Positions 4,309 to 23,401 of a stretch of 64,000 nucleotides of DNA are shown here, piece by piece. The position numbers and the translations under genes are program-made. Position 1 is the stretch's first letter. Every line of letters starts with the position of its first letter. The stretch spans positions 2,464,001-2,528,000 of the forward strand of contig OZ250165.1 in the NCBI GenBank assembly GCA_965238005.1. Reading direction: 5' to 3'. The stretch is from Longimicrobiales bacterium (GTDB lineage: Bacteria; Gemmatimonadota; Gemmatimonadetes; Longimicrobiales; Gaopeijiaceae). The notes below the pieces were generated by a model. The model was not told the DNA's origin and did not search any database. It was given only the letters and a program-made list of their open reading frames with translations.

Positions 4309-4362
4309 TTGCCCTTCTTTACTCTTCGACGTATCTTGACTTTCGGTTTTTATTCGGTATCC
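4309..4362 (+). promoter_or_regulatory. sigma70-like promoter plus candidate SOS operator of imuB
   Basis: TTGCCC(4309)-17 nt-TATCTT(4332), followed by CTTTCGGTTTTTATTCGGT at 4340-4358. Confidence 0.65.
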
Positions 4363-4381
4363 GTTCAAGGCCTTTTTGTCC

Positions 4382-5731
4382 ATGTCCGAGCCCCGTTCGC
4401 GTGTGTACAGTGGTCCTACCCACCCAGCCGTTCGAGGGTGGGAGACCAGGGGCGCCACCACCACCCAGCGACGAGGAAGCCGCCAAGCACTCTGCGCCTG
4501 GCTGCCCACCTTCGAGCTTCGACTGGAGCTGGTCCGGAGCCCGGAGCTGGACGCTACGTCCGTAGCCCTTCTCTCCCCCGGCGAGAACACCCGGAGAACG
4601 GTCTGGCAGGTCTCCGAGCGGGCCTCCATCGCCGGCGTACGCCCTGGGCAACTCATCTCTCAGGCCGTCGCCCTCTGCCCTTCCCTCACCCTCCTGGAGC
4701 CCGATCCGGCCCACTACGACGCTGCCCAGGAGGAGCTCCTGGAGACCCTGTCGGGCCTGAGCCCCATCGTGGAGCCTGCCGGCCGCGGAAGGGTCTTCGT
4801 GGGAATGGACGGGCTCGGACGGCTCTACGGCTCACCACCGCGCCAGGTAGACAGAGTTCTCGGAGCGCTCCTCACGATCTTCCCCCGTCCACTGGTGGCC
4901 GCCATGAGAATGGGGTGGGCCTCGGGGAAGTTCGGAGCCTGGGTGGCCGCGGCCGGAGCGGGCCCCGGACGACCCGTGATCGTGGAAGGAGAGGAGCTCC
5001 TCTCCTTCCTGGGCCCCTGCCCCGTCTCCGTGCTTCCGGTCGATACGGTCATGGTCGAGCGGCTCGAGCGGCTCGGCATCGACACCCTGGGCGATCTGAT
5101 CCGTCTCCCGACCCCAGCCTTGATCGGTCAGTTCGGATCCGACGGGCAAAGGGCTCGGGCCTGGGCCACGGGCGAGCGGATCGATTCCGTCCAGCCGTAC
5201 CATCGACCTCGACCGATCCGATCTTCACTCGACTTCCACACTCCCGTGGGGCAGGTGGAAACGCTCCACGGGGCACTGGACCGGCTCCTGGAACGAGCGT
5301 TGGCGCGTCCGGAGCGTCAGGGCAGGAGCATACAGGGTGTGGGTCTGGCCGCTCGCCTGGAGGGTGAGGGCTCGTGGGCCCTGAAGACGGTCCTTCGGGA
5401 GCCCACGGCGCATCGCGAGCGAATCGCCTTCGTCCTTCGCGCCCGGATGGCCCTGTCACCTCCCCCTCGGGCCGTGGAAGCCCTGACCGTGGAGTTCTTC
5501 CAGTTCGGCCCTGCCACGTCTCAGAACGACCTCTTCGACCGGGGGGAGTCCAGTGGCAGAGAAGAGTGCGGGCGGGAGCTGTCCGAGGGCACCGTCCCCT
5601 CCGCCCTCAGGGAGGCCGTTCAGGAATTGAAGCTGAAGCTCGGCCACTCACCACTCTATCGCGTCGTAGAGGTGGACCCCTGGTCCCGGATCCCCGAGCG
5701 GAGACATGCGCTGCTGAATTTCGAGCCGTGA
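4382..5731 (+). CDS. imuB: ImuB-like catalytically inactive Y-family DNA polymerase
   Basis: Y-family layout (GVRPGQLISQAVALCP, LSPIVE, LERLGIDTLGDL, FG) without the catalytic DE motif; C-terminal SRIPERR. Start codon uncertain. Confidence 0.85.
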   Translation: MSEPRSRVYSGPTHPAVRGWETRGATTTQRRGSRQALCAWLPTFELRLELVRSPELDATSVALLSPGENTRRTVWQVSERASIAGVRPGQLISQAVALCPSLTLLEPDPAHYDAAQEELLETLSGLSPIVEPAGRGRVFVGMDGLGRLYGSPPRQVDRVLGALLTIFPRPLVAAMRMGWASGKFGAWVAAAGAGPGRPVIVEGEELLSFLGPCPVSVLPVDTVMVERLERLGIDTLGDLIRLPTPALIGQFGSDGQRARAWATGERIDSVQPYHRPRPIRSSLDFHTPVGQVETLHGALDRLLERALARPERQGRSIQGVGLAARLEGEGSWALKTVLREPTAHRERIAFVLRARMALSPPPRAVEALTVEFFQFGPATSQNDLFDRGESSGREECGRELSEGTVPSALREAVQELKLKLGHSPLYRVVEVDPWSRIPERRHALLNFEP

Positions 5732-5763
5732 TTTAACATTTGATCAAGGACACGGCGATAGAG

Positions 5764-6120
5764 ATGACCGAGATCCCACTCAAGCTCACCATCCTGCTGG
5801 TGGTCGCGGCAGCCGGCTGCTCGGACGGAAGCAGTAGCCAGGGATCGTCGAACCGGACACCGCCAGCGGACCCGTCAACGGACGCATCATCATCTCCGAG
5901 CTCCTGGGTGGAGAGTGCGGGACTTCGTCCCGGATCATCAGCTACGCCCCCGACGAGACCGATCCCCTGGTCCTGGTCGCTTCCGGTTCGAACATCATGT
6001 CACAAGATCGTCTTTGGCCGCGGGGGACCCGAGCAACCGCGGTCCATGTGGGTGATAGACCTCGCCACCAGAGACGAGTCGGAGATTCTTACCGGCGTGC
6101 AGTGGGCCGTTGCCATAAGG
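5764..6120 (+). pseudogene. Probable degraded lipoprotein or TolB-like propeller fragment
   Basis: Lipobox-like AAGC at the N-terminus and a later IVFGRGG...MWVIDLATRDESEI segment; the sequence between them looks scrambled. Confidence 0.3.
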
Positions 6121-6541
6121 CCGGGGGCCTGTATACGTATCATTCTTGAACTTTTATACGTATACGCTAGGCGAGCGCATGGTAATGACCGGACTGGTCA
6201 CGGGCAGCGGGGAATCTCCTCGGCCTCGGCGAGCTGGGCGGCAGTCAGGGAGCCCCGATAGGGGGCCAGACCGGAGCGCCACACACCCTGTGCGTCCTCC
6301 GCCAACGCTGGTGCAACGCTGGTGGGCCGTTTCCTCCACAGGAGGCCCTGAGCGTCGGCTGATTCGGAGGCCTTCCGCCGTGTCGTGGCTACGGATTTTC
6401 GGTCCCGGGTCCTCCGGTCGCGCCCCGTGCCGTCGAACTTCGGTGTGGCGATTCTTCGTCGTCGCAAGTGCCCCGCCGAACGCGTAAATTACGTAATACC
6501 AGCTACATGACAGACGGCCGTATCCGTCGGAAGGCCGGACG

Positions 6542-7114
6542 ATGCCAGGTTCCGATGTAGTCACGGTCGAGTTCGAGTTCACCCCCGAAGACTGGGTCAG
6601 GGCCAACGCCACGCACTCGTGGAACTCGGAGTTGACGAAGAAGGCGCTCAAACAGATGCAGGTGCTTTTCGCCATGATCGTCGGGCTCATGGCCCTGCTC
6701 ATGCTCCTTGGCGGATCGGCAGTGGGTGCCATCGCCATGTTGCTCGCCGGCACGGTCTTGGTGGGTGTGCTCAAGCCTCTCGTCCGCATCTCCCAGCGGC
6801 GCCAGATCAAGAAGGTCGCCGACCTCGGCCTCATCAACGGCATCTTCGGACCGCATCGCGTGGAGCTGCGGGACGAAGGCATCTTGGATTCCACCACCGG
6901 ATACGAATTCCTCGTGAGATGGAGCGCCATCGAGGACATCAAGGAGTCGGACGGCTCCTTCCTCATCTACTCGGGCGCCAACTCCTTCCTGACCATCCCA
7001 TCCTCGGCGTTCCCCGACGCCGAGACGCTGCGAGCGTTCGGCGATCGCTTCTTCGAGCGTCTCAGCCAAACAGAGACGCCGGCGTTGCCCGATGAGGGAG
7101 AGCGCGGGGACTAG
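6542..7114 (+). CDS. YcxB-like membrane protein
   Basis: Two TM helices followed by VRWSAIEDIKESDGSFLIY...FLTIPSSAF, typical of the YcxB C-terminal domain. Confidence 0.75.
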   Translation: MPGSDVVTVEFEFTPEDWVRANATHSWNSELTKKALKQMQVLFAMIVGLMALLMLLGGSAVGAIAMLLAGTVLVGVLKPLVRISQRRQIKKVADLGLINGIFGPHRVELRDEGILDSTTGYEFLVRWSAIEDIKESDGSFLIYSGANSFLTIPSSAFPDAETLRAFGDRFFERLSQTETPALPDEGERGD

Positions 7115-7189
7115 CGGACACCGGCCGTCCCGTCGGTTGGCCCTCCATCAGACGGGGTGACGTCAAGGAGCGGACATCCCATTCCTGAA

Positions 7190-7249
7190 TTGCATCGCCC
7201 ATCCTTTCGGTTTATATTCGGTTTCCGTGGAAACCCCATAGACCGAAAT
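7190..7249 (+). promoter_or_regulatory. sigma70-like promoter plus candidate SOS operator of the DUF6504-recX operon
   Basis: TTGCAT(7190)-17 nt-TATATT(7213); CTTTCGGTTTATATTCGGT at 7204-7222 overlaps the -10; inverted half-site ACCGAAA at 7242-7248. Confidence 0.7.
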
Positions 7250-7252
7250 GTG

Positions 7253-7561
7253 ATGAGCCCTCCGACCCCGTCATCCAACGGCGCCAACAACAGCCGGCCC
7301 AGCAGGCTTCAACGGCAAAGGCTTCGCCCGTTGAAGTCCCCCTCCCCCGTCCAGGTCCGGACCGACGCCGACGGGTTGCCCACCGAGCTGCACCGATGTG
7401 GGAAGCGGTTTCGGGTGGCGGCGGTACGCGAGCGCTGGAGGATCGACGATGAGTGGTGGCGGAATCCCATCTCAAGGGAGTACTTCGCCCTGGTTCTGGA
7501 GGACGGGCGCCCCATCATCCTCTTCCGGGACCTCGTCGCCGGGGGATGGTACGGACAGTGA
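7253..7561 (+). CDS. Stand-alone ImuB C-terminal-like domain protein (DUF6504-like)
   Basis: PVQVRTDADGLP...RVAAVRERWRIDDEWWR..ISREYFALVLEDG...LFRDL..GGWY resembles the W..D..WW/R.Y signature of ImuB C-termini. Confidence 0.75.
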   Translation: MSPPTPSSNGANNSRPSRLQRQRLRPLKSPSPVQVRTDADGLPTELHRCGKRFRVAAVRERWRIDDEWWRNPISREYFALVLEDGRPIILFRDLVAGGWYGQ

Positions 7562-8247
7562 AGATCCTCCGGATCCACCTCGCCCCCCGTAGCAGAAACA
7601 GGGTGCTGGTGCACCTCGAGGACCTGGACCCGCTGGAGATCGCCCTGGACGTCATGGACCGGTCCGGGGTTCACGTGGGCTCCGAGCTCGAGCCCGCGGA
7701 TCTCGCCCACCTGCGGGAAGACGACACGAAATGGCGCGTTCGTCAGGTCGCCCTCCACCTCCTCTCCTCTCGCCCCCGTGGGGAGCAGGAGCTCCGCACC
7801 CGTCTCCGGGCGAAGAGCTTCCCCCCTGCCCTGGTGGAGTGGTGCATCCACCTCCTCAGAGAGCAGGGGCTCCTGGACGATCATGCCTTCGCTTCGGCAT
7901 ACGTGCGAAGCCGCATTCGCCTCCGCCCGCGGGGGCGCTTTCGTCTGAGCCAAGAATTGCGACAGAAGGGGGTGGCTGTCGAAGTCGTCGAGAAAGCGAT
8001 CGAGGACGCCTTCCTCGATGAAGCAACGTCGGAGCACAAGCTGGCCAGGGAGGCCGCTCAGAGGTGGGTGCAGCGCCAGAGCCGGACGGTGGCCAAGGCG
8101 CTCGCGGCGCATGACCGTTCCCCGGAGCGTGAGCGGGGCCGACGACGTCTGCACGCTTTCCTGAACCGCCGGGGCTTCGCACCCGACGCCATTCGCGCCG
8201 CTCTAACGGCCGCGTTGGAGAGGGCCGCCGATCTCTGTGCGCCCTAG
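7558..8247 (+). CDS. recX: Regulatory protein RecX
   Basis: ALHLLSSRPRGEQELRTRL, GLLDDHAFA, RGRFRLSQELRQKGV, FLNRRGF; GTGA overlap with the upstream stop indicates translational coupling. Confidence 0.9.
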   Translation: MKILRIHLAPRSRNRVLVHLEDLDPLEIALDVMDRSGVHVGSELEPADLAHLREDDTKWRVRQVALHLLSSRPRGEQELRTRLRAKSFPPALVEWCIHLLREQGLLDDHAFASAYVRSRIRLRPRGRFRLSQELRQKGVAVEVVEKAIEDAFLDEATSEHKLAREAAQRWVQRQSRTVAKALAAHDRSPERERGRRRLHAFLNRRGFAPDAIRAALTAALERAADLCAP

Positions 8248-8249
8248 TT

Positions 8250-11200
8250 CTAGCTGGCCCGGGCGTCCGAGTCCTCGTCGCGCATCTCCTTCAGCGCGTC
8301 GTGGATTCCCTGGGTCAGGTCTCGCTCCTGGCGTAGCGCAACGAGGAGCCGCTCGGCCTCCTTGGCCTCGTAAGTGAGCTGTCCGGAAGTCACGATGACC
8401 TGGTCCACGACCGCCTTCTGACTGCCCAGTGATTCCAGTCCCGCCCGGATATCCATGAGCAGACCGTCGGCACGGGCGAGACGCCCCTCGGCGTTCTCGA
8501 TCTGCCGTTGCCGCTCGTCGATGCTCGCAAGCACCTCGGTCATCTCCTCCGCCTTGGCCCGCACCACCTCAAGGTTCTCGCTCGCGGTTTGCACCTCGTC
8601 GGTCGCCGCGGAGATGGCCCGCACATCCTCCAGGGTGCGCTCCGCCCGGGCGAAGAGGTCCTGGACCTCTTCGCGAACCTGATCGATGCTCCCCTGCCTT
8701 GCCGCCAGCGTCTCGATGGAGCGGCCGAGCTCCTGCTCGACCTTGTCGAGGTCGGCGAGCTTCTCCTCGAACTGGGTGATGCGCTTCTCCGCGAAGCGCA
8801 GGCTGCCGGCCCGCGCCTCGAGGCGCTCGGCTCGCATGCCGACCTTCTCGGACTGCTCCTCCGCAGCGACCAAGTGCTCGGTAACGGAGCGGAGCTGATC
8901 CTCCAGTGCCTGGAGGTCCGTGGCCGTCTCCTGGCGCAAGGTGGCCACTCGATCGAGATGCTCGGTGGCCTTGTCCAGAGCCTGCTGGCGTTGGGCGATA
9001 TCGGCGGCGACCCGATCCACTCGCTCCGACAGCGACGTGATGTACTCCGAGCGCTCCACTGCCGCGTCCACTCCCTCGCCCAGCTCCGCCATGTGGTCTT
9101 CGGCCTTGCGTACGGCGGCGGTCACGTCTTCGATGACGGCCCGTACCTTGTCGGCCGCCTCGGCCTGCGCGGACACCGCCTCGAAGCGACGATCGGCGTC
9201 GGCGAGGCTGACCAGCAGATTGCTCGTGCGCTCGTCGAGCTGAGTCCCGGTCTCCCTCAGCTCCGACATGCGATTGTCGAGCTCCGTCAGCGACGGCTCG
9301 CGCGCTTCCAGATGTGAGGCGGCCGCCAAGACCCGGTCGGCGTTCTGCCGCATGTGGTCGAGGTTGGCGGTCAGGTCGTCGAGCTGCGTGATCCGCGGGC
9401 GGAGCTCGCGGATGGACTCCTGCGTGGTGGCTAGCCACGCGCCGGTCTCGAGTTGTCCGGCCTGCATCCGCTCGATCTCCGCGCGGGTGGCCCGCAGACG
9501 CTCCATGGCGTTGACGACCTCCTCTCGCGATCCCCTGAGGGTGGTGAGATCACGAATGGCGTCCTGGACCTCGGACTGTCGAGCCTCGATCCGCTCGAGG
9601 CGGTTGGCCGCCTCGACGGCCGACGCCTCAGCTCTCGACATCCCGTCCCGCATCCCGGTGACCAGCTCCACCTGCTCACTGAGTTGATCGAGCTGAGACG
9701 ACAACGACGTCGAGCGAGCAGACAGGTGGTCACCGCTGCGGGTGGCCTCACTGACCCGCTGGCTCGCGTCGTCGAGGGCACGGAAGCGATTCTCGAACTC
9801 CGTCACTCCCGTGCGCAGATCCACGATCCGCTGATCGATGGCCCCCAGGCTGGCCCGCCCGAGCTCGAAGCTCTGCGTGCTGCGCCGTACCTCCTCCCGC
9901 AGCCCGGCCAGCGTCGACCGCAACTCCTCGTCTTCCCTCCGGATATTCGCCTGTCCGGCCCGGAGCTCGGTAAATTGCTCGGTCACCTTGGCGTTCAGGG
10001 CGCGGAGCGCCTCGACGCTCGTGTTGACCTTCTTCACCTCCTTGACCTGCGCCCGGGCTTCCTTGAGCTTCGACTCCAGCTCCCAGTGGAGGTCCGTGAG
10101 GGCCCGTGCCTGTGCCTCCGTTCGATCGATGGCCTCTCGCTGGCGCTCCAGAGCGGCAGTCTTCTGGCTCACGTGATCGGACAGTCCACGCAACGCGTTC
10201 AACTGCCGCTCGGTGCGACCCGCCAGCTCCTCGGCCTTGGTGAGGTCCTGCATCGTGTTCTCGACCGAGGCCACACGACTGGTTGCGTATTCCACGCCCT
10301 GATCCACGGCGTCCATCCTGGTCCGGATCTCTTTGTACCGGGAAAGGAGGGCTTCCTGCGAGCTCCGGGTGTCCGCCTGATCCTCCCGGATGCGAGCGAC
10401 ATCCTGGCTGTAGTCGAGGAACTGGGCTCTCGCCTCTTCCACCTGTGTGCGGAGCTTCGAGAGGGCCCCCTTCGGTCCGGAGAGCTCGGCGATCTCCTGC
10501 CTGGCCACGGACACCGACTGTACCCCCTCGCGGAGATCGGAGACGTTCGAGTCCAGATCCTTGACCTCCTTGGAGGCCGACTGGATCGCGTCGAGGGCCT
10601 TCCGCTGATTCTCGGCCACCGCGTCGGCCTGCTGGGCGATGGCCGCCATCTGTGCCTCAAGCTGGCCAAGATCGAGTGTGCGGCCCTCGATGCGGCTGAG
10701 CTCCTCCTTGAGCTTCCCGAGATCATCCCGAACCGCAGAGAGGTCTCCCTTGGGGCCGAGCAGCTCCGCCATGGCCGTCCTGGCGTCGGCCACGGCGTCC
10801 ACCTGAGCGTGTAGGGAGGTCACCTGGCCCTCGAGCTTGTCGGCCGAGCTCGTGCTCCGCTCCAGCGACCCGGAGAGCTCATTCTGGGATTCGGCGATCT
10901 CTTCGATCCGCCTCTCGACGACGTCGAGCTGAGCGAAGGACTCCCTCAGTCCGGTCCCGCGATCCTGCATCTGCTGGATCTCCTCGCGGATCACGTTCAC
11001 CCTCTTGAGCAGGGTGGCGACGGTACCGGAGGGCCCGAGCAGGTCCGCCATGGCCGTCCTGGCATCGGCCACCGCCTCCACCTGAGCGTGCAGGGTGGTC
11101 ACCTGGCCCTCGAGCTTGTCGGCCGAGCTCGAGCTTCGCTCCAGGGATCCGGCGAGCTCATCCTGAGATGCGGAGACCCCTTTGATCCGCCTCTCGACGA

Positions 11201-12305
11201 CGTCAAGCTGAGCGACGGTCTCCTTCAGTCCGGTCCCGCGATCCTGCATCTCCCGAAGCTCCTCACGAAGAACGCTCACCTGCGTGAGCAGGGTGGCGAC
11301 GGTACCGGAGGGCCCGAGCAGGTCCGCCATGGCCGTCCTGGCATCGGCCACGGCGTCCACCTGCGAATGTAGGGAGGTCACCTGGCCCTCGAGCTTGTCG
11401 GCCGAGCTCGAGCTTCGCTCCAGGGATCCGGCGAGCTCATCCTGAGATGCGGAGACCCCTTTGATCCGCCTCTCGACGACGTCAAGCTGAGCGACGGTCT
11501 CCTTCAGTCCGGTCCCGCGATCCTGCATCTCCCGAAGCTCCTCACGAAGAACGCTCACCTGCGTGAGCAGGGTGGCGACGGTACCGGAGGGGCCGAGCAG
11601 CTCCGCCATGGCCGTCCTGGCGTCGGCCACGGCGTCCACCTGCGAATGTAGGGAGGTCACCTGGCCCTCGAGCTTGTCGGCCGAGCTCGTGCTCCGTTCC
11701 AGCGACCCGGCGAGCTCATTCTGGGATTCGGCGATCTCTTCGATCCGCCTCTCGACGATGTCGAGCTGAGCGAAGGACTCCTTCAGTCCGGTCCCGCGAT
11801 CCTGCATCTGCTGAAGCTCCTCGCGGAGCACGTTCACCCTCTTGAGCAGTGTGGCGACCGTACCGTAGGGCCCGGCCATCTCCGTGATGTCGCCCGTGGC
11901 CGTGCCGACCTCGTCTACCATGGACCGGATGTCCCGGACCTGCATGTTCAGATCGCTGACCCTCCGAGACGCGTCGTCCAACGTGGTGGTGGCTTTGCTC
12001 TGCGACTCCGTGAGCTCCTTCGCCCGCTGCTCGACCGAGTCGACCTGGGCCGAGATGTCGGTGAACGAGTCGACCCGCGTCTGGAGCTCGGTGACCTGCT
12101 GGCTCATGGCCTCCGTGCTGGCCTGGACGGCGGCCAATGGGCCAGAGGCGTCGTGGAGGATCTGTTGCGCCTCCTCCGACCGCTTCACGAGGTCCCGGAG
12201 CGCTTTCCGGTCCCTCTTGGCCTGGGCGAATATCTTTTGGAGCTCTTCGGGGAGCTCTGTGATCTCACCGCTGCCACCGAAGAACGACTTGATCCAGGAA
12301 GCCAT
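8250..12305 (-). CDS. Very large (~1350 aa) coiled-coil protein with internal 93-aa repeats, function unknown
   Basis: Almost entirely helical heptad-like sequence, no TM segment or Walker motif seen; starts MASWIKSFFGG after a GAGG RBS. Confidence 0.85.
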   Translation of the reverse strand: MASWIKSFFGGSGEITELPEELQKIFAQAKRDRKALRDLVKRSEEAQQILHDASGPLAAVQASTEAMSQQVTELQTRVDSFTDISAQVDSVEQRAKELTESQSKATTTLDDASRRVSDLNMQVRDIRSMVDEVGTATGDITEMAGPYGTVATLLKRVNVLREELQQMQDRGTGLKESFAQLDIVERRIEEIAESQNELAGSLERSTSSADKLEGQVTSLHSQVDAVADARTAMAELLGPSGTVATLLTQVSVLREELREMQDRGTGLKETVAQLDVVERRIKGVSASQDELAGSLERSSSSADKLEGQVTSLHSQVDAVADARTAMADLLGPSGTVATLLTQVSVLREELREMQDRGTGLKETVAQLDVVERRIKGVSASQDELAGSLERSSSSADKLEGQVTTLHAQVEAVADARTAMADLLGPSGTVATLLKRVNVIREEIQQMQDRGTGLRESFAQLDVVERRIEEIAESQNELSGSLERSTSSADKLEGQVTSLHAQVDAVADARTAMAELLGPKGDLSAVRDDLGKLKEELSRIEGRTLDLGQLEAQMAAIAQQADAVAENQRKALDAIQSASKEVKDLDSNVSDLREGVQSVSVARQEIAELSGPKGALSKLRTQVEEARAQFLDYSQDVARIREDQADTRSSQEALLSRYKEIRTRMDAVDQGVEYATSRVASVENTMQDLTKAEELAGRTERQLNALRGLSDHVSQKTAALERQREAIDRTEAQARALTDLHWELESKLKEARAQVKEVKKVNTSVEALRALNAKVTEQFTELRAGQANIRREDEELRSTLAGLREEVRRSTQSFELGRASLGAIDQRIVDLRTGVTEFENRFRALDDASQRVSEATRSGDHLSARSTSLSSQLDQLSEQVELVTGMRDGMSRAEASAVEAANRLERIEARQSEVQDAIRDLTTLRGSREEVVNAMERLRATRAEIERMQAGQLETGAWLATTQESIRELRPRITQLDDLTANLDHMRQNADRVLAAASHLEAREPSLTELDNRMSELRETGTQLDERTSNLLVSLADADRRFEAVSAQAEAADKVRAVIEDVTAAVRKAEDHMAELGEGVDAAVERSEYITSLSERVDRVAADIAQRQQALDKATEHLDRVATLRQETATDLQALEDQLRSVTEHLVAAEEQSEKVGMRAERLEARAGSLRFAEKRITQFEEKLADLDKVEQELGRSIETLAARQGSIDQVREEVQDLFARAERTLEDVRAISAATDEVQTASENLEVVRAKAEEMTEVLASIDERQRQIENAEGRLARADGLLMDIRAGLESLGSQKAVVDQVIVTSGQLTYEAKEAERLLVALRQERDLTQGIHDALKEMRDEDSDARAS
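10758..11873 (-). repeat. Four tandem 279-bp intragenic repeats in A-B-B-A arrangement
   Basis: The anchor ggtaccggagg recurs at 11022, 11301 and 11580, with a variant at ~11859 (period 279). Units 2 and 3 are near-identical; units 1 and 4 resemble each other. Confidence 0.95.
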
Positions 12306-12544
12306 GATTCCTCTCGATCGGGGTTTCCGAGAAAATGTCACCCGGTCCCGGAAAATACCATGTGGCCTCCCTTCCCGGCGAGCGTGCTGGAGTGAAGGCT
12401 AGCATCCACTCCAATTGCTGGACTCCATGGCTGTGGCGCAAGTGGATCAGGTCTTGGCGCATCTTTTTCAACCCGATGCGGTAATAGGCCTGGGCATTTC
12501 CTCTGGCGACACGGGCGTGATCGGGGGGACCAGGAGGGGAGACA

Positions 12545-13153: not shown

Positions 13154-13247
13154 GAGCCGCCCCACCCTATTCCCGGACGGGCTCCTAGTCTAGGGAGGGA
13201 TCGGCCAGACAGAGCCCACATAGCGGGGGCCCGGTAACCGGAGTCGT

Positions 13248-14162: not shown

Positions 14163-16037
14163 CTACCAGGCTATGCCGTAGTCGTCACCGTGGTGGCTAG
14201 AGCCTCCCCAGAAGGTCCCGTGCTCCCAGTCGAAGAAGATGGCGTTGATGGGTCCGGAAGTCCTCTCCGAGAACGTCAGGCTGTACCCCATGCGCCTCAG
14301 GTCGGCCTGCACCCAGGGCGGCGTGGCCTGCTGAACCAGCATGCGACCGGGGCTACTCTCGTGGTCGCCGAACGAGCCGCGCATCTGGAAGCTGTTGATG
14401 TTGGCCGCTTCGGCCGCCTGCTGCACGTTCATGTCGAACTCGACGATGTTCAGGAAGAACTGGAGCAGGTTCTGGTCCTGGCCGTCTCCACCCTGGACCG
14501 CGAACGACATGAAGGGCTTGCCGTCCTTCACGGCCAGGCTGGGCGTGAGCGTGGCTCGGGGCCTCTTGCCGGGCTCCACGACGTTGTAGGGGTTGTCCTC
14601 CTCGTTGACGATGAAGCTCTGCATGCGCTGGCTCAGGCCTACCCCGGTCTGGCCGGCGACCACGGCCGGGATCCACCCGCCGCTGGGCGTGATCGAGACC
14701 ACCCAGCCCTCCTCGTCGGCGGCCTGGATCGACGTGGTGCCCAGGTAGAAGTCGTCCTCGAAGTCCGCCATGGCCTGGGATCCGGCCGCCTCGGTCACGG
14801 TGCGGCCCTTCTCGTTCCACTGCTCCAGGTACCGCAAGAACGGGTTGGTCCCGCCCTGGAAGGGATAGGGGTCGCCGGGGCCCAGGTTCGGGTCGTTCTT
14901 CTCCCAGTCGACCTGGCCGGCCCTCTGCTTGGCATAGTCCTTGGAGAGCAGTCCCTCGAGGGGTTCCTCCGGCGGGTAGTAGGGATCGCCATAGTAGAAG
15001 TCGCGATCCGCGAAGGCCAGGTTCATGGTCTGGTACAGGGCGTGGATGTAGCGGCTACTGTTATAGCCCATGGCCTTGAGGTCGAAGTTCTCGAGGATGT
15101 TCAACGCCTGCAGCAGGACGGGTCCCTGCACCCAGGTCGTCAGCTTGTAGACGTCGATGCCCTTGTAGCTCGTCTTCACCGGCTCCTCGAGGTAAACCTG
15201 CCAGTTGGCCAGATCCTCCATGGTGATGAGCCCCCCCTGTTCCTGGGTGCCCCTCACGAGCTCCTGGGCGATATCCCCCTTGTAGAAGCGATCGTACGCG
15301 GCGTAGATGGCCTCCCTGCGGCCCTTGCCCTGGGCCAGCGCATCGCGCTCGGCCTCGACCAGTTTTTCGAGCGTGCGCTTGAGGTCGGGCTGGCGGAAGA
15401 TCTCACCCTCCCTGGGCGCCGGGTTCTCGGCGTCGTCGGGGTGCGTCAGGTAGACCGCACGGGAGTAGGGCCACTCGCGGATGCGGTCGATCTGGCCGTG
15501 GATGCCTCGCACGGCGCCGGCCTCGATGGCGTAGCCGTCGGCCATCTGGATGGCCGGCTCGAGCACCTCGGCCAGGCTCAGCGTGCCGAACTCGGCCAGC
15601 ATGGTCATCAGCCCGCCCGGCGTGCCCGGAGTCACCGCCGCCAAGGGCCCGTACTGGGGCGGAAAGTCCATCCCCTTCTCACGGAAGAAGTCCACCGTGG
15701 CGCCCGTCGGCGCGACGCCCAGCGCGTTGACGCCGATGACCTTGCCGGTGTTCGGGTTGTATATGAGTGCCTGGGTCTCTCCGCCCCAGCTCAGAACGTC
15801 CCACATGGTAGCGGTGGCGGCGAGCATGGCGCTGGCGGCGTCCACCGCGTTTCCGCCCTTCTGGAAGATCATGGCGCCGGCGGTGGCCCCGAGGGGCTTG
15901 CCGGTGATGGCCACCCAGTGCGTGCCGTGCAGGACCGGCTTCTGCGTCCGCTGCGCCTCCAGGACCCAAGGGCTCAGCGCGAAGATCAGCATGAGTGCGA
16001 GGCTCAGCCGAAGCAGGACCCTCGTTCGTGCCCTCAT
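14163..16037 (-). CDS. ggt: Gamma-glutamyltransferase family protein (secreted)
   Basis: Signal peptide; GGNAVDAA, PGTPGG, LAFADRD, catalytic GTTS, PGKRPRATLTP; RBS GGAGGA. Confidence 0.92.
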   Translation of the reverse strand: MRARTRVLLRLSLALMLIFALSPWVLEAQRTQKPVLHGTHWVAITGKPLGATAGAMIFQKGGNAVDAASAMLAATATMWDVLSWGGETQALIYNPNTGKVIGVNALGVAPTGATVDFFREKGMDFPPQYGPLAAVTPGTPGGLMTMLAEFGTLSLAEVLEPAIQMADGYAIEAGAVRGIHGQIDRIREWPYSRAVYLTHPDDAENPAPREGEIFRQPDLKRTLEKLVEAERDALAQGKGRREAIYAAYDRFYKGDIAQELVRGTQEQGGLITMEDLANWQVYLEEPVKTSYKGIDVYKLTTWVQGPVLLQALNILENFDLKAMGYNSSRYIHALYQTMNLAFADRDFYYGDPYYPPEEPLEGLLSKDYAKQRAGQVDWEKNDPNLGPGDPYPFQGGTNPFLRYLEQWNEKGRTVTEAAGSQAMADFEDDFYLGTTSIQAADEEGWVVSITPSGGWIPAVVAGQTGVGLSQRMQSFIVNEEDNPYNVVEPGKRPRATLTPSLAVKDGKPFMSFAVQGGDGQDQNLLQFFLNIVEFDMNVQQAAEAANINSFQMRGSFGDHESSPGRMLVQQATPPWVQADLRRMGYSLTFSERTSGPINAIFFDWEHGTFWGGSSHHGDDYGIAW

Positions 16038-16145
16038 CGTTCCTCCTAGGCTTCGTACGATTGACGACCGTGGTTGCGTAGCGATCAAGGTACTTGGAGA
16101 GGTTCGACCACGCACCAGATGCGGTTTCCCGGGTGCTCGCCCCGC

Positions 16146-17354
16146 TCAGAAGAAGTGGGTCAACGACAGGTATAGCACGGTGGGCGTGGGCCCGAACTCG
16201 GAGCCGATGCTAGTGTCCAGCGCGAACGCGTCGTCCCCCACGCCGATGAAAAAGCCCCCACGCAGGCTCGAGTTGGAGCCGAAGCCCCACGTTCCGCCGC
16301 CCGACAGGAGGACGCTGCCATCCGAAAGGCTGGTGAGGGCCAGAAGGTCCGCAGCCCACAGCGGATGGATCTGGTACGAGGCCTGGGTGGCCAGGGCGTC
16401 GCGTGCCAGCAACTGAAGCTCGCCCCGTTGGAACGCAGAGGAGAGAGTCGTCTGGAAGAGCTCGTCGGAATCCGCGGCACCGAAGCCGTCCCGCTGATAC
16501 TCGACGATCAAGTACAGATCCCGACGGTACACAGCCACCCGCCGGTCGACCCCCACCGTGCCCCTGAGCACGGCTCCGACCCCCCCGTCCCGGACCGAGA
16601 CCTCGGTGCGAACGGCCCACCCGGCCAACTCCCCCACGGCGCTCACCGCCCCCGCCGCGTCGTCGAACAGCACGCCACCCCATGCCGCGACATCCCATCC
16701 CCGCCAGTTGGTCTTGCCCCGCACGAGGGCCGTCAGCTGGTCTCCACCCGGCGACGACGTGGGGCGTACCACCAGCTCCACCTCGCTGAAGGCTCCCGGA
16801 TAGGCACGAACCCGGACGCCGTCGATGCCGACCCGATACTCACGGAACGGATCGGCCGGGTCGAACGGCGCGAAGGGATCGGCAGGTGTGAGGATCAGGG
16901 TGCTTGCCCACGAAACGACCTGTCTCCCCACAGAGAGCTCAACCGACTCACCCACGGGGAGAGTGAGGGCCAGACGATCCACACGATGTCGCCACAAGAC
17001 CTGGTCGCTCGCCTCCGCCGTCCAGTCGAGCTCCAGCCAGTTGACCCCGGCGCTCGGGACCACAGCAACCGCCCCGGTGCCGAGCACATCTTCACCGCTG
17101 ACCTGGAGGGTGTGCCCGTACGCGAAGTCCAGGCCGAAGGGCCCCACGGAGGGAGCCCACATGACACGGAAGCGTTGGAAATCGGTGAGTCCCGAATCGC
17201 TTACCGGGCTTTCGCCCGAGCGGCTGAAGAGGTTCAGGTAGTAGGCGGAGAGGTCGGGCACTTGAGCGTCGAGCACGGCCGCACCGAACGCCAGGTACAG
17301 GACCGATACGATCAGTCCCCGTCGCAGTCCCCGCCGGGGCTCTGCTCCCCTCAC
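16146..17354 (-). CDS. Probable outer-membrane beta-barrel protein of the LolA-like/ABC operon
   Basis: Signal peptide, GRQVVSW, G.DGVR, C-terminal Phe; last gene of the operon. Confidence 0.65.
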   Translation of the reverse strand: MRGAEPRRGLRRGLIVSVLYLAFGAAVLDAQVPDLSAYYLNLFSRSGESPVSDSGLTDFQRFRVMWAPSVGPFGLDFAYGHTLQVSGEDVLGTGAVAVVPSAGVNWLELDWTAEASDQVLWRHRVDRLALTLPVGESVELSVGRQVVSWASTLILTPADPFAPFDPADPFREYRVGIDGVRVRAYPGAFSEVELVVRPTSSPGGDQLTALVRGKTNWRGWDVAAWGGVLFDDAAGAVSAVGELAGWAVRTEVSVRDGGVGAVLRGTVGVDRRVAVYRRDLYLIVEYQRDGFGAADSDELFQTTLSSAFQRGELQLLARDALATQASYQIHPLWAADLLALTSLSDGSVLLSGGGTWGFGSNSSLRGGFFIGVGDDAFALDTSIGSEFGPTPTVLYLSLTHFF

Positions 17355-17369
17355 CTGTCAAGCGATCCT

Positions 17370-18083
17370 TTACTGCCTCTCGTCCGATGTGACCTGCCCG
17401 TCGACGAGGCGCACGCGGCGGCGCGCCCGCTCCATCACGCGGGGGTCGTGGGTCGAGAAGAGGAACGTGGTGCGGTGCTCCCGGTTCAGCCGCTCCATGA
17501 CGTCCAGAAGCGCGTCGCTGGTATGGGAGTCGAGATTGGCCGTGGGCTCGTCCGCGAGGACGAGTGTGGGCTCGCCTACCACGGCCCGGGCGACCGCTAC
17601 CCGCTGTTGCTGGCCACCGGAGAGCTTTCCGGGCTTTCGGTCCTCCAAGCCCTCGAGGCCGATCTCCTGGAAGAGCTCCCCCACTCGCCGGTGGCGCTCC
17701 TCGGTGGGCACTCCCCTCAGCAGGAGCGAGAACTCCGCATTCTCCAGAGCCGACAGCACGGGGAGCAGGTTGAAGGCCTGGAAGACGAAGCCGATGCTCT
17801 CGAGCCGGAGCCGGGCCAGCTCCTTGTCGGAGAACTCGGTGATCTCCTGCTCGCCTACCCAGATCCGCCCTCGGGTGGGGCGGGTCAGCCCTCCGAGCAG
17901 GTTGAGAAGGGTCGTCTTCCCGGACCCGGAAGGGCCGGCCATGGCCATGAAGTCTCCTTCGTGGATCTCCAGGGTGACACCACGGACCGCTTCCACTTCC
18001 TCGGGCTCCTGGGGATAGACCTTCCAGAGATCCTCGGTGCGCACGGCTACCTCGGTGGCCAAGGACGGGTTCTCGTTCGTCAT
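17370..18083 (-). CDS. ABC transporter ATP-binding protein (LolD/MacB-type)
   Basis: GPSGSGKT, LSGGQQQRVAVARA, LADEPTANLD, STHD. Confidence 0.93.
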   Translation of the reverse strand: MTNENPSLATEVAVRTEDLWKVYPQEPEEVEAVRGVTLEIHEGDFMAMAGPSGSGKTTLLNLLGGLTRPTRGRIWVGEQEITEFSDKELARLRLESIGFVFQAFNLLPVLSALENAEFSLLLRGVPTEERHRRVGELFQEIGLEGLEDRKPGKLSGGQQQRVAVARAVVGEPTLVLADEPTANLDSHTSDALLDVMERLNREHRTTFLFSTHDPRVMERARRRVRLVDGQVTSDERQ

Positions 18084-19339
18084 TCGAATTTCAGGGCCTC
18101 CGCCACGTCGATCCTGGTGGCCTGGATGGCGGGATAGATGGATGCGGTGATTCCCACTACGGCGATGGACACGACGCTCTGGAGGACCTGAACGGCCCGA
18201 AACTCGGGAACGATGACCGGATCCATGACGATGCCCGAGAAGGTGAAGTCGTTGTCCATGAGGAAGGAGAAGTCCAAACCGTCGCGGAAGAAGATCCACG
18301 TCAGCGCGAAGCCGGCGATCATGCCCACCACGCCGGCCAGCGCCGTGAGGAGAACTCCCTCGAGGAAGATGACGACTCCCGTCTCTTTCGGCGTGAGGCC
18401 GAGAGCCTGGAGCACGCCGAACTCACGCCTCCGATAGAGGACCGACATGAGGATGGTGTTGAGCACGGCAAGGGCGACGATGGCGAACAGAATCGAGTGG
18501 AAGACGAAGTCGCCGTAGTCGTCGATGCGCACGGCGCTATGGAGCTGCGGGTACGCTTCGGTCCAGCTCACGACCCGGATCCCGTCACCGTCCAGGCCCT
18601 CCTCCAGAGCTTGGATGGCATCGGGCACGACCCGGCTCCCCGGAAGGATGGCCCCCACCGTGGTGACGGCCCCCTCGGCGTCCAGCCAGGCACGGGCCGT
18701 GGTGATGGGAATGTGAACCAGGCCCTCGTCCACCTCCGGGAGACCGCTCCTGAAAACGCCCACCACACGGACGAGCTGCCCTTCGATCTCACCGTCCGTC
18801 GACTGGGCCGTTAGGACGAAGCGCGAGCCGAGCCTGAGGCCGAGGCGCTCGGCCAACCCGGTGCCCACGTAAGCGGCCAGGCGGTCATCGACCTCGAGGT
18901 ATCGTCCCTCCACGACCTGCTCCGCCACGTGCGAGAAGTCGGACTCCGCCGCCGGATCCACGCCCTCGATCCCCACGGGCACGGCGGACGTCGTGGAGCT
19001 GGCGAGGCCGTTCGTCGAGAGCCGGATCGTGGTGGCCAGGGGGGCCATGGTAGCCGTCAGGTCGCCGAGAGCCGCGAGCGCGGCCTCGGCCTCGAGCCCC
19101 TCGAGTCGGTCGTCGAGGCTTCCGCTCTCCAAGTGGTCCGGAGCCTGAAGAAGAACGTGCCCGGCGCCCATGCGCACGCCGGCGTTGATCCAGTCCTCGT
19201 GTCCACCGTCGGCCAGTGATCGCGAGAACATGAGGAGTGCCAGGCCCAGGGCCATGGCCGAGGCCGTGAGGAGGCTCCTCCGGGTCTCCCGCCAAACACC
19301 TCGCCCGGCGAGGCGCATCAGGATCAGCGTGCGCCTCAT
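18080..19339 (-). CDS. ABC transporter permease (LolC/E, MacB-PCD/FtsX-like)
   Basis: N-terminal RRSLLT helix, periplasmic domain, NTILMSVLYRRREFGVLQALG, YPA. Confidence 0.9.
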   Translation of the reverse strand: MRRTLILMRLAGRGVWRETRRSLLTASAMALGLALLMFSRSLADGGHEDWINAGVRMGAGHVLLQAPDHLESGSLDDRLEGLEAEAALAALGDLTATMAPLATTIRLSTNGLASSTTSAVPVGIEGVDPAAESDFSHVAEQVVEGRYLEVDDRLAAYVGTGLAERLGLRLGSRFVLTAQSTDGEIEGQLVRVVGVFRSGLPEVDEGLVHIPITTARAWLDAEGAVTTVGAILPGSRVVPDAIQALEEGLDGDGIRVVSWTEAYPQLHSAVRIDDYGDFVFHSILFAIVALAVLNTILMSVLYRRREFGVLQALGLTPKETGVVIFLEGVLLTALAGVVGMIAGFALTWIFFRDGLDFSFLMDNDFTFSGIVMDPVIVPEFRAVQVLQSVVSIAVVGITASIYPAIQATRIDVAEALKFE

Positions 19340-20604
19340 GTGTCCGCCAGTGCGTCGGCCGGTGGGATCTTCACCGCCCGATACGCAGGGTAGAACGCCG
19401 CCAGGATCGAGGTCACCAGGAGGCCGACGGCACTGTACAGGGGACCTTCAAGGGTATACTCCGCCCTGAGAACGGGTCGGACGACGGCCCCCGCCATCGT
19501 GAAGTCTCCGAACATGCGCGAGAGGTCCGGCGGATAGTTGTGAAGCCAATACAGCACGGGCAGTGAGATGGCGACCCCGACGGCGAGGGCCAGAGTGCCG
19601 AGGATGAGCCCCTCGTAGACCACGGTTCGCGCCACGCTCATGGGCTGTGTGCCCAAGGCCCGTACCACCGCGAACTCGCGACGCCGCTCGTACGTACTGA
19701 GGAGCATGGTGTTGGCCACCCCGAACATGGCCATCACGAAGACGATCCCCACGATGATGGCGTTCACGGCCTTGGCGAGATTGGCGTACTCCGCCAACTC
19801 CGCCCGGAAGATCGTCCAGGGCCGAGGGGCGATCGGATACCCAAGGTCCTGGGCTGACAGGGCGGACGCCAGGGAATCCCCCACGGCCACGGCGCTCCAG
19901 GGATCGTCCAGTGAAGCGGCGATCTCGTGTACGCGATTGGGCGGCATCGCCATCAGATCCTGAAGAGCTCCGATGGGAAGCACCGCCAGGGACCCGTCCA
20001 GCGCCGGCATCCCGGTGTCGAAGACTCCGCTGATCCTATACAGATCGTTGCCCAGGGAGCCGTCGGTGGCCGGCACCACGAGGACGACCTCATCGCCGGG
20101 CCCGACATCGAGGATCGCGGCCATCTCGCTCCCGACCAGGATCTCCCGCTCTCCGGCTCTGGGCGGGCGCCCCTCCAGCGGCATAGCGAGAAGACGGGTG
20201 ACCCGGGGTTCCCGCTCGGGGTCCACACCCACCAGGACTCCGGCCACCGTCTCCCGCCCGGAGCTCACGAGGCCGCCCCCGTAGACGCGAGGCGCCGCGG
20301 CCGTCACTCCAGGAAGCGCCATCGTGGCGCGCACCAGCCCCTCGACGTCGATCCCGTCTCGACCACCGAGGGTCGAGTACATGCTTCGCTCGGGGTAGTA
20401 GTCTGGGGCGTGCACCTGGAGCTGCCCCGAGACCAGATTGGTCCCCGTCTCGATCATCTCGGCAATCATGCCGTGCCAGGTTCCGATCATGGTCACGGAC
20501 GCGAGATACCCGAAGGCGAGGGCCGAGGCGGTGATGAGCGTGCGCTTCCAATTGCGCCAGAGGTTCCGCCACGCCAGGCGCCACCACACCCACCGATCTC
20601 CCAT
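19336..20604 (-). CDS. ABC transporter permease (LolC/E, MacB-PCD/FtsX-like)
   Basis: LAWRNLWRNWKRTLIT, NTMLLSTYERRREFAVVRALG, YPAYRA. Confidence 0.9.
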   Translation of the reverse strand: MGDRWVWWRLAWRNLWRNWKRTLITASALAFGYLASVTMIGTWHGMIAEMIETGTNLVSGQLQVHAPDYYPERSMYSTLGGRDGIDVEGLVRATMALPGVTAAAPRVYGGGLVSSGRETVAGVLVGVDPEREPRVTRLLAMPLEGRPPRAGEREILVGSEMAAILDVGPGDEVVLVVPATDGSLGNDLYRISGVFDTGMPALDGSLAVLPIGALQDLMAMPPNRVHEIAASLDDPWSAVAVGDSLASALSAQDLGYPIAPRPWTIFRAELAEYANLAKAVNAIIVGIVFVMAMFGVANTMLLSTYERRREFAVVRALGTQPMSVARTVVYEGLILGTLALAVGVAISLPVLYWLHNYPPDLSRMFGDFTMAGAVVRPVLRAEYTLEGPLYSAVGLLVTSILAAFYPAYRAVKIPPADALADT

Positions 20605-20790
20605 CTAGTGTCCCGTCCCAGAAGTTCGCTGGCATTCGGGCGCCGATGCATCCATCCTAGCGGCGTTGCTCCTCCTCGGACCACGGCCTTCGGCCGCGGT
20701 GCCCGCGCTGCTATTCCTCGTCGTCGCGCCTTGCCAGGACGGCGCCTCGGCACCCTCGGTTCGGACCGAACTTCTGGGACGGGACACCAG
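20605..20790. mobile_element. MITE-like non-autonomous element (~185 bp)
   Basis: Perfect 21-bp terminal inverted repeats GTGTCCCGTCCCAGAAGTTCG (20608-20628) and CGAACTTCTGGGACGGGACAC (20767-20787), bounded by CTAG and CCAG; no transposase inside. Confidence 0.8.
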
Positions 20791-21591
20791 CTACCTTTGG
20801 CGACGGAGGTTGCGTAGCGAGAAGAACTCCTCGTCCACGCCGATGTCGAACTCCAGCTCATGGTACTGGATAACCGTGACCTCGCCGGGATCGTCCGCCG
20901 GCTCCACGGTCATGACGGTGGGAACCAACCGGCCGCCCATCACCAGGTGACCGCTGAAGGTCATGGTGCGGATCAGCTCATCGGACTCGTCGTAATATCG
21001 AGCCCAGGTGGGCATCAGGTCGTCCCGTCGCACCTGGTAGCGAATCTTGCCCCAGACCACGGGAGCCTCGGGGCGAGGGAGCAGGAGAAACTCCCAGACG
21101 TCCATGCCGTCCCTGGCCCCCTCGAACTCGATCTCGATCTCGTAGTCGTCGGCGAGCGTGCTCTCCTTCACGAGGTCATCGTTGGTGAAGTGCGAGCCCA
21201 TCCACGAGCCCATCATCATGGACGACGGCACCTTGATGGTGCGGTCCACCCTGGGCAGGTAGTTCCAGACCTCCTGCCCCGCCTTCAGGGTGGCTATGCC
21301 GGCCTCCTTGGCCGGTGTCTCCACCCGGACGAGCGCGTATTCGGTCCCCAGGGACCAGGCGCGGAGCGTGAGGGAGCGCTCCCAGTGCTCGGTCCGGATG
21401 TCCATGGTAAAGCGAGCCTCGCTGGACTCGCCTCTGAGCAGGCGGTCCACCTGATCGATGATCTCCCGGGCCGACTGAGCCCGGGCCGCCTGAGCCTGAG
21501 CCGCCTGAACTCGGGCCGGAAAAGGTGTCAGAACGCAAAGAAAAGCGGCCAACAGTGTCGCGACTGCGGGCCAGGGCCGAAAGGAAGTCAT
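20791..21591 (-). CDS. Outer-membrane lipoprotein-sorting protein (LolA-like)
   Basis: Signal peptide; WNYLPRVDRTIKVPSSMMMGSWMGSHFTNDDL and FFSLRNL family motifs. Confidence 0.88.
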   Translation of the reverse strand: MTSFRPWPAVATLLAAFLCVLTPFPARVQAAQAQAARAQSAREIIDQVDRLLRGESSEARFTMDIRTEHWERSLTLRAWSLGTEYALVRVETPAKEAGIATLKAGQEVWNYLPRVDRTIKVPSSMMMGSWMGSHFTNDDLVKESTLADDYEIEIEFEGARDGMDVWEFLLLPRPEAPVVWGKIRYQVRRDDLMPTWARYYDESDELIRTMTFSGHLVMGGRLVPTVMTVEPADDPGEVTVIQYHELEFDIGVDEEFFSLRNLRRQR

Positions 21592-22007
21592 GGTCCGTCA
21601 GGGGGTGGGCCCTCGAACGTGTAGCACCACGCCTCACCCTCGAGGACCGTCTCCCCATCCTTTCGCCGCACCGTGACGGCCAAGTTGGTCACCGGCTTCG
21701 TCTCGTGGACGCTCAGGACCACCGCCTCGGCGGTTATGGTATCACCGATGAAGACGGGGGCGGTGAACTTCCACTCCTGGCTCATGAACACAGTGCCGGG
21801 ACCCGGCATGTCCATGGCGACGAGGGCATGCAACAGGCCCGTCGTCAGGCCCCCCTGCACCACCAACTTGCCGAACGGCGTGGCGGCCACGAACTCCTCG
21901 TCGAAGTGGAGGGGGTTGTGGTCCCCGCTCAGAGCGGCGAACTGGGCTACGTGTGTGGATGTGAGCGTGATACTGCGAGAAGCTCGGTCGCCAACGCGCA
22001 CGTTCAT
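21588..22007 (-). CDS. MaoC-family dehydratase
   Basis: FAALSGDHNPLHFD, PGPGTVFMSQ, FTAPVFIGDTITA; ATGA overlap with the LolA-like gene. Confidence 0.9.
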   Translation of the reverse strand: MNVRVGDRASRSITLTSTHVAQFAALSGDHNPLHFDEEFVAATPFGKLVVQGGLTTGLLHALVAMDMPGPGTVFMSQEWKFTAPVFIGDTITAEAVVLSVHETKPVTNLAVTVRRKDGETVLEGEAWCYTFEGPPPDGP

Positions 22008-22183
22008 GGGCTTGGTCCGGTCGCGGTTTCCAGGTGCCTCGAAAGCTAGTCGAGTGCCCCGTTCCAGGGCAGTTAGCCACCAATATCGGATAAGGCACGC
22101 TCTTGAACTCGGCCATGAATGGGGGCATCCTGGAGACACAACCGCCTGACCTCCCTTGGATCGAACCGAGTGGAATAACCGTC

Positions 22184-23275
22184 ATGAGGCTCAAGACCAG
22201 CCCGGCCATCGAGGAAGCCCTGATCGCGATCGGCTTGCTAGGCGCCGCGATCTACCTGTATTACGTCATAGCGTTCTGGGGCATGGCCGATCGCTTTCAA
22301 CCAGGCGTGTTCAGAGACTACGTCACGGGGGCGGGGATGCAGGTGGAGATGTTCGTGGTGTGGGTCGGCTTCGGGGTCGCCGTCGCGGCCACCAACGCGT
22401 GGCTGGAATCCCCGCGCCTTCGTGAGCGTCCCTTCGGGCAGATCATTCTGATCAGAAGTGGGGTTTATCTGGCGGCGTTCTTTGTCGTCAGCGGTGCCAT
22501 TCACGTGATCCTGGGACTCTTCGTCCTCTCGGAGGCGGACCACATGGCGTTGATGGCCACTCTCAGCGGTCGGTTCGTCGTGTCGGCCTCGAGCTCGCTC
22601 GTTCTGAGCGTCGTCGGAGTCAACTTCCTCCTCGAGGTCCGCCGCAAGGTTGGTCCCGGCAACCTGATCGCTCTTCTCACGGGGCGTTATCACCGACCGA
22701 AAGATGAGGAGAGGTTGTTCCTGTTCCTGGATCTCAAGGACTCGACCGCGATCGCGGAGTCGTTGGGGCACAATGCGTACAGCCAGTTCCTGCGGTCCTG
22801 CTTTCAGGATCTCACGGCATTTGTGCTCCGGTACGGAGCCCAGATCTATCAGTACGTGGGAGACGAGGTGGTCCTCACGTGGGCGAGCACTAAGCCGCAC
22901 TCGAAAGAGAGCTGCCTCCAGACGTTCTTCGCCTTCCAAAACGAGCTCGAGCGGAAGAGCCACTGGTACCTCTCCAAGTTCGGCCTCGCACCGGAGTTCC
23001 GGGCTGGGGTGGATATGGGGACCGTCACTGTTGCAGAGGTCGGAGACGTAAAGCGGGAGATCGCCTACCACGGCGACCCCCTCAACACGGCCGCCCGGCT
23101 TCTGGAGCTCTGCAAGCAGTTCGGTCGCAGCATTCTGATCACCGGAGAGGTCGAAAAGGCGATATCGCGATCTCCGGACTTTCTCACGGAATGGCAGGGG
23201 GAACTCACTCTCAGGGGGAAGTCGGAGGACGTCGCCGTCTACGGAGTCTCCCTGCAGGTGGCGCCGAGCGCGTAG
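22184..23275 (+). CDS. Membrane-anchored adenylate/guanylate cyclase domain protein
   Basis: Four TM segments followed by FLDLKDST, YVGDE, GDPLNTAARL, LRGK. Confidence 0.88.
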   Translation: MRLKTSPAIEEALIAIGLLGAAIYLYYVIAFWGMADRFQPGVFRDYVTGAGMQVEMFVVWVGFGVAVAATNAWLESPRLRERPFGQIILIRSGVYLAAFFVVSGAIHVILGLFVLSEADHMALMATLSGRFVVSASSSLVLSVVGVNFLLEVRRKVGPGNLIALLTGRYHRPKDEERLFLFLDLKDSTAIAESLGHNAYSQFLRSCFQDLTAFVLRYGAQIYQYVGDEVVLTWASTKPHSKESCLQTFFAFQNELERKSHWYLSKFGLAPEFRAGVDMGTVTVAEVGDVKREIAYHGDPLNTAARLLELCKQFGRSILITGEVEKAISRSPDFLTEWQGELTLRGKSEDVAVYGVSLQVAPSA

Positions 23276-23342
23276 CAGGGATCGTCCCGACGGGCGCGCC
23301 GTGGGAGCCCTCGGTCAGCCCACCTCGCGCCTCACCTAATCG

Positions 23343-23401
23343 TTGCACAACAGCTACTTTCGGTTTACATGCGGTTCCTTGCCCCAAACAAAAACCGAAA
23401 G
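23343..23401 (+). promoter_or_regulatory. Promoter plus candidate SOS operator(s) of dnaE2
   Basis: TTGCAC(23343)-17 nt-TACATG; CTTTCGGTTTACATGCGGT at 23357-23375, and an inverted degenerate copy CCCAAACAAAAACCGAAAG at 23383-23401. Confidence 0.68.

Follow-up and report, generated by a model that had tools for sequence, protein, structure and literature searches.

Within a 64,000-nucleotide stretch of the genome of a Longimicrobiales bacterium (assembly GCA_965238005.1, contig OZ250165.1, positions 2,464,001 to 2,528,000; here, the window), three similar 19-bp sites sit on predicted promoters of imuB, of a unit formed by a DUF6504-like gene and recX, and of dnaE2. These sites are copies of a direct repeat that recurs in the orthologous promoters of related genomes, and the genome encodes a canonical LexA protein, here L001, with intact cleavage and catalytic motifs. 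Comparison of these sequences indicates that the repeat is very likely the operator of this Gemmatimonadota LexA. A first-pass annotation of the window had read the three sites as a candidate lineage-specific SOS box. The SOS-operator part of that reading is strengthened by boxes at lexA (two) and recA, by conserved orthologous promoters, and by the lack of any match to a WYL regulator, but the 19-mer form of the motif, its lineage specificity, and the expected boxes at uvrA, ssb, and ruvA did not hold up.

All three 19-mers are present where they had been reported, at positions 4340, 7204, and 23357 of the plus strand. Allowing up to three mismatches, the window contains four matches to the 19-mer, versus 0.01 expected from 100 shuffles; the fourth, with three mismatches, is an inverted copy directly before the GTG start of dnaE2. 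The proposed geometry, in which each site overlaps the −10 element or likely transcription start (+1) of a sigma70-like promoter with a 17-bp spacer, likewise holds at imuB, the recX unit, and dnaE2. The imuB arrangement recurs in a relative (G011). The predicted recX-operon promoter has its −35 element (TTGCAT) at 7190-7195 and, after 17 bp, its −10 element (TATATT) at 7213-7218, within the box, and the predicted dnaE2 promoter has TTGCAC at 23343-23348 and, again after 17 bp, TACATG at 23366. No promoter passed a stock promoter scan with a stricter cut-off over positions 4250-7600. The forward dnaE2 site reads TACATGCGG here and TATATTCGG, a perfect box, in the same-genus relatives G001 and G002. 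The K in the 19-bp consensus is thus due to two changes private to the dnaE2 site of this genome, and the T-rich spacer of the window sites is largely due to their overlap with −10 elements. The inverted dnaE2 box is also present in G011, G010, G016, and G005.

While the 19-bp consensus had correctly captured a direct repeat with an 11-bp period, it was over-fitted, and as a motif it misses both boxes of the lexA promoter; the conserved core is TTCG(G)-N6-TTCG(G). The annotation had also named lexA as a promoter in which a box should be sought, and the L001 promoter contains four TTCGG words that form two tandem boxes, one in the −35/−10 spacer and one past the −10 element. We assembled the 80 LexA loci closest to L001, whose titles name Longimicrobiales, Gemmatimonadota, or an uncultured bacterium; 79 of them have enough upstream DNA. 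An exact TTCG-N7-TTCG occurs at least once in 78 of these 79 lexA promoters and twice in 72 of them, and the spectrum of half-site spacings peaks at 11 bp (152 pairs). In these boxes the TTCGG halves are fixed and the spacers variable. Across 40 genomes chosen to spread over 11 families of Gemmatimonadota (38 out of 116 matches and two from another search), at least one lexA-promoter box was found in 38; families f10-f12, which are outlying, have TTCGC as the word instead. In lexA promoters the 17-bp spacer is taken up exactly by the box, and boxes in general overlap core elements of the predicted promoters, as repressor sites do.

The genome (4.8 Mb, 96% complete; G000 in the coordinates below, with relatives numbered in the same series) contains one recA and two LexA-domain genes. 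L001 (G000:C1:2582226-2582831) passes the TIGR00498 equivalog cut-off and keeps both the Ala87-Gly88 cleavage site and the Ser122/Lys160 catalytic pair. The other, L002 (lexA2; G000:C1:1551105-1551758), adjoins gltX- and tadA-like genes, as judged from their translations. Because L002 retains a LexA DNA-binding domain (PF01726, 70 bits) and a second, weak LexA match exists in most of the 40 relatives, one could suppose that this paralogue binds the box, alone or together with L001. We consider this improbable. L002 has neither the Ala-Gly site nor either catalytic residue, so that the usual mode of induction would be closed to it; helix 3 reads STKTVSEH rather than the SLATVHEH of L001, its own promoter has no box, and the box and its fifth base track L001-type LexA proteins across phyla.

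The search for boxes was extended to the rest of the genome, for which gene starts were taken from a simple purpose-made gene caller. With a matrix built from lexA promoters only (72 sites, two near-identical relatives excluded), the imuB site ranks 3rd in the genome, the recX-unit site 4th, the inverted dnaE2 site 14th, and a site at recA, where a box had been anticipated, 31st. With a fuller matrix, which combined sites from lexA, recA, dnaE2, and imuB and left out the organism's own genus, 39 sites in the genome score above 20, versus 1 in a Markov-3 control. Fifteen of these lie outside a dispersed repeat that is described below, and eight of the 15 stand at lexA, recA, imuB, the recX unit, dnaE2 (two), a PA0069/SplB-like radical SAM gene, and a Cho/UvrC-like gene. 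Among the remaining seven, three stand at mraZ, a topoisomerase A-subunit gene, and a DUF5131 gene, and four are unexplained.

Matrix scores at recA, dnaE2, and imuB would be circular, and we therefore give exact-box counts for the orthologous promoters; the counts leave out the genome itself, duplicate loci, and loci with less than 100 bp upstream, and they cover at most the best 30 loci per search. The conservation that an SOS operator should display was borne out. An exact box is present in all 17 scorable dnaE2 promoters (19 relatives matched) and all 20 scorable imuB promoters (22 matched). Among the matches listed, it also stands before 24 of 29 recA orthologues, 19 of 27 SplB-like radical SAM genes, and 22 of 28 Cho-like nuclease genes. 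In control windows, a box was seen in 4 of 568 (exact) and 4 of 567 (matrix). These queries did not find dnaE2 or imuB in the 16 genomes that represent families f2 and f3. The topoisomerase A-subunit gene (gyrA/parC-type) was not retained as a core target, since its exact box is patchy (11 of 28 among the matches listed). The box itself (L194, G000:C1:4542001) lies directly before one of two A-subunit paralogues, in an orientation that varies by family.

The DUF6504-recX unit carries its own box in all four genomes in which it is detached from imuB (G000, G001, G002, and G011) and has none in six genomes in which imuB, the DUF gene, and recX are contiguous. Because the box is present where the unit is detached and absent where it is contiguous, we infer that this second site was gained and kept recX in the regulon. 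Between imuB and the unit, the window contains about 1.4 kb (5740-7114) with a YcxB-like gene and a doubtful open reading frame (ORF), a region where the genes are contiguous in the six relatives.

The box at mraZ shows a narrower distribution. Among the matches listed, 16 of 29 mraZ promoters reach a matrix score of at least 16 (12 with an exact box), comprising 16 of 21 in the organism's own family and 0 of 8 outside it. The site (G000:C1:2643455-2643473 in this genome; L190) lies upstream of the −35 element; within the family, its orientation varies and two distances are seen. It is a possible SOS link to the division cluster, although its position is not the classic one of a repressor site. 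In gut Firmicutes, LexA sites have already been described at mraZ (PMC3998124). The activator-like placement at mraZ, together with a direct repeat that is unusual for a symmetric LexA dimer, would also be consistent with an unrelated regulator (a WYL/PafBC- or DriD-type activator or another direct-repeat binder) for which lexA is merely one target. This strikes us as very improbable. The 96% complete genome yields 0 matches to the WYL family PF13280; the boxes cover the −10 element, spacer, or +1 at lexA, imuB, recX, and dnaE2; the box is doubled at lexA, as for an autoregulated repressor; and LexA boxes of direct-repeat form have already been described (PMC8565304, PMC7739468).

The dispersed repeat is about 250 bp long and occurs at 60 loci in G000:C1 (for example, 2166042-2166286, 1356739-1356996, and 1677797-1678052). 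A near-perfect box is found in 28 of the 60 copies. A Ser/Thr kinase gene, often truncated and read away from the box, begins in 20 of 41 left flanks, and the copies diverge in sequence after GGCCGTTA. Among 41 genomes, the repeat was found only in G000, G001, G002, and G011. The repeat might act to titrate LexA, or it might bring kinase genes under SOS control. We set aside an IS91/ISCR end as its identity: a single ISCR fragment is close to one of the copies, and the remaining two tblastn matches are more than 160 kb from any copy. An integron attachment site was likewise not supported, the intI promoter having no box. Taken with the exact fit of the box to the 17-bp spacer of lexA promoters, the boxes in this kinase-associated repeat might suggest that the motif instead forms part of the promoters of a special sigma factor or arises as a side effect of repeated DNA. 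We give this the faintest of chances: the box can face either way and occupies several positions with respect to −10 and −35, and its conservation spans the phylum, whereas only 4 of 41 genomes have the repeat.

A homologue search with the DNA-binding domain gave only close relatives among the matches listed. To look beyond Gemmatimonadota, we scanned metagenomes by pattern alone for promoters with TTCGS-N6-TTCGS in the spacer, which returned at least 80 loci. Among the 80 matches listed, 25 boxes are no more than 200 bp away from lexA, and a further one is 508 bp from it; other boxes among these matches precede IMS polymerases (five), uvrB, a topoisomerase A subunit, DinB-family genes (two), a radical SAM gene, and dprA (50 ORFs scanned). 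Names for nine of the 10 metagenomic LexA proteins looked up include Terriglobales, Acidiferrales, Candidatus Falkowbacteria, Deltaproteobacteria, and Gemmatimonadaceae. Contrary to what had been supposed, the box is thus not specific to one lineage, since the TTCGG form precedes lexA in the locus of a Candidatus Falkowbacteria-named protein and a TTCGC form precedes it in Acidobacteriota. At all 26 metagenomic lexA loci among the matches listed, the base after TTCG tracks LexA residue 44, with Glu and G in 11 and Lys and C in 15. Counted as half-sites over 63 proteins (four short metagenomic rows left out), Glu goes with 133 G and 3 C, and Lys with 51 C, 3 T, and 0 G. Residue 44 aligns with Glu45 of E. 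coli LexA, which is listed as DNA contacting (PMC3091678). We regard the match between residue and base as suggestive evidence that LexA reads the box. An E. coli Glu45Lys LexA mutant is said to prefer G at the matching base, which a literature search did not confirm.

Several observations weigh against the LexA-operator reading. The forward dnaE2 site, a degenerate copy, does not make the top 60 when the genome is scored with the lexA-only matrix. In the scan with the fuller matrix, 24 of the 39 top sites fall in the dispersed repeat and have no link to repair. The boxes proposed upstream of uvrA, ssb, and ruvA are absent from this genome; no box was found here at uvrA (two copies), uvrB, ssb (two), ruvA, recN, dinB, or intI. 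Five of the 29 recA orthologues lack an exact box (four in family f3 and one second recA copy), and the relatives as a whole are not independent samples. On the tree, the residue-base match reduces to three changes, with good support for just a single independent pair (sign test p = 1), and recA and Cho-like promoters have TTCGC in a first half-site despite Glu44. It is because of this single supported pair, and because TTCGC is tolerated at recA in Glu genomes, that we hold the match to be only suggestive.

With L001 as the repressor, the sites suggest how binding, repression, and induction might proceed at these genes. LexA would occupy the −10 element or the transcription start at imuB, DUF6504-recX, and dnaE2, as well as at lexA, recA, the SplB-like radical SAM gene, and the Cho-like nuclease gene; bound over the promoter core, it would block RNA polymerase. 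Upon DNA damage, RecA filaments would trigger self-cleavage of LexA at Ala87-Gly88 via Ser122/Lys160, releasing a small regulon centered on mutagenic repair. RecA-stimulated self-cleavage is established LexA biology.

LexA boxes in the form of direct repeats are documented in Alphaproteobacteria (GTTC-N7-GTTC; PMC8565304, PMC3091678) and Balneolaeota (PMC7739468), and the latter paper cites work on Patescibacteria and Acidobacterium for direct-repeat recognition. The first-pass annotation had placed the window sites in the register of GTTC-N7-GTTC. This is correct for the 11-bp period seen in the spacing spectrum but not for the leading G, as only 11 of 120 distinct Gemmatimonadota sites fit that pattern with a G before TTC in both halves. 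Compared with the alphaproteobacterial box, then, the Gemmatimonadota box is a direct repeat in equal register that conserves the trailing GG rather than the leading G. The alphaproteobacterial LexA targets include lexA, recA, and the imuB/dnaE2 genes. The Balneolaeota box TTACACATATTTTWTACATA is unrelated in sequence and was confirmed by electrophoretic mobility shift assay; both are direct repeats that emerged from comparative genomics, and the Balneolaeota regulon also includes lexA, recA, translesion polymerases, and a radical SAM gene (PMC7739468).

Two further phyla bear comparison. The Candidatus Falkowbacteria-named lexA (L460/P0136) has an identical TTCGG-N6-TTCGG box and the helix-3 residues H-E-H, as do three further low-GC lexA loci without a taxon. 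A LexA box of Patescibacteria (candidate phyla radiation, CPR) was reportedly described by Sanchez-Osuna, Barbe, and Erill in 2017. The Gemmatimonadota box is probably close or identical to that published box; the host phylum differs, and the Gemmatimonadota regulon is centered on imuB/dnaE2. The LexA proteins of Acidobacteriota (Terriglobales, Acidiferrales) share 48-54% identity and the helix SLATVH(K/E)H with L001, and TTCGC-N6-TTCGC stands in their promoters; the fifth base in Gemmatimonadota is G instead of C and the residue Glu instead of Lys. For Acidobacterium capsulatum, Mazon et al. reportedly described GTTC-N7-GTTC in 2006. This organism is listed as validated in Table S2 of PMC8565304. 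Its box shares the direct repeat, the 11-bp period, and the common TTC, but the letters conserved in Gemmatimonadota lie 3′ of TTC (TTCGG), not 5′. No description of a Gemmatimonadota LexA box was found in literature searches, in the excerpted text of PMC8565304 or PMC7739468, or in the excerpted supplement of PMC8565304, a search that did not include the Patescibacteria, Verrucomicrobia (Erill 2016), and Mazon 2006 papers, which may bear on novelty.

Taken together, these comparisons lead us to a broader proposal, which we hold tentatively and rate a little short of an even chance. Gemmatimonadota, Acidobacteriota, Patescibacteria, and some Deltaproteobacteria-labeled lineages may have in common one LexA sub-family that recognizes TTCG(S)-N6-TTCG(S); the identity of the fifth base would be set by one residue of helix 3 (the counterpart of E. 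coli Glu45), Glu going with G and Lys with C; in this Longimicrobiales family LexA would also reach mraZ and the division cluster (16 of 21 genomes), and recX would have gained a new box when it was split from imuB.

TABLE 1 Putative operators, predicted promoter, and target genes in the window
Feature	Position	Strand	Remarks
Operator 1	4340..4358	+	Core TTCGG-N6-TTCGG at 4342-4357; covers the likely imuB transcription start
Predicted sigma70-type imuB promoter	4309..4337	+	−35 TTGCCC at 4309, 17 bp, −10 TATCTT at 4332
imuB-like Y-family polymerase homologue	4382..5731	+	Pfam IMS, E 1.8e-12; under the DNA polymerase IV cut-offs
Operator 2	7204..7222	+	Core at 7206-7221, straddling the −10 of the recX-operon promoter
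Small DUF6504-like ORF	7253..7561	+	Weak PF20114 match (E 0.013-0.022), under the Pfam cut-off; lies between imuB and recX in relatives
recX	7546..8247	+	Pfam RecX_HTH1 and HTH2; start codon approximate
Operator 3	23357..23375	+	Degenerate, TTCGG-N6-TGCGG; straddles the dnaE2 promoter −10
Operator 3b	23383..23401	−	Inverted, degenerate, TTCGG-N6-TTTGG; 3 mismatches; matrix score 22.8
dnaE2, error-prone DNA polymerase III alpha	23404..26802	+	NF004225 936.5 bits versus a cut-off of 939; Pfam domains

A long-spaced palindrome, TTTCGGT...ACCGAAA, was considered at dnaE2 and recX and rejected at both. The inverted word at dnaE2 belongs to the second, inverted direct-repeat box, and that at recX is a lone half-site without a matrix score. 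Convergent on recX is a gene for a 1,363-amino-acid protein (8250-12341, minus strand) with coiled-coil-type Pfam matches only. With the NF033429 query, which matched only RecA in this genome, imuA was not found, though imuB and dnaE2 are present. Elsewhere in the genome, a strong box at G000:C1:4469934 (L189) lies directly before the DUF5131 gene (L189:1117-1923, minus strand), which faces a gene for a three-Cys-motif partner (TcmP) protein (L189:262-1161, plus strand); metagenome locus L443 has an apparent box, read by eye, before a similar TcmP-like ORF without a family match. The integron integrase (G000:C1:3441723-3442649; L208) scores above the TIGR02249 cut-off and has no box in its promoter. 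Integron integrases are SOS controlled in many other bacteria.

A direct-repeat motif is in itself the expected kind of finding, and the interest here rests on the residue-base code and on the details of the regulon. We know of no explanation for how a symmetric LexA dimer reads a direct repeat, and the pairing of Glu with G versus Lys with C would offer a one-residue, one-base handle on this reading. For a widespread and barely cultured phylum, the analysis provides a putative SOS box with a small core regulon, from which damage-inducible genes should therefore become predictable in Gemmatimonadota genomes.

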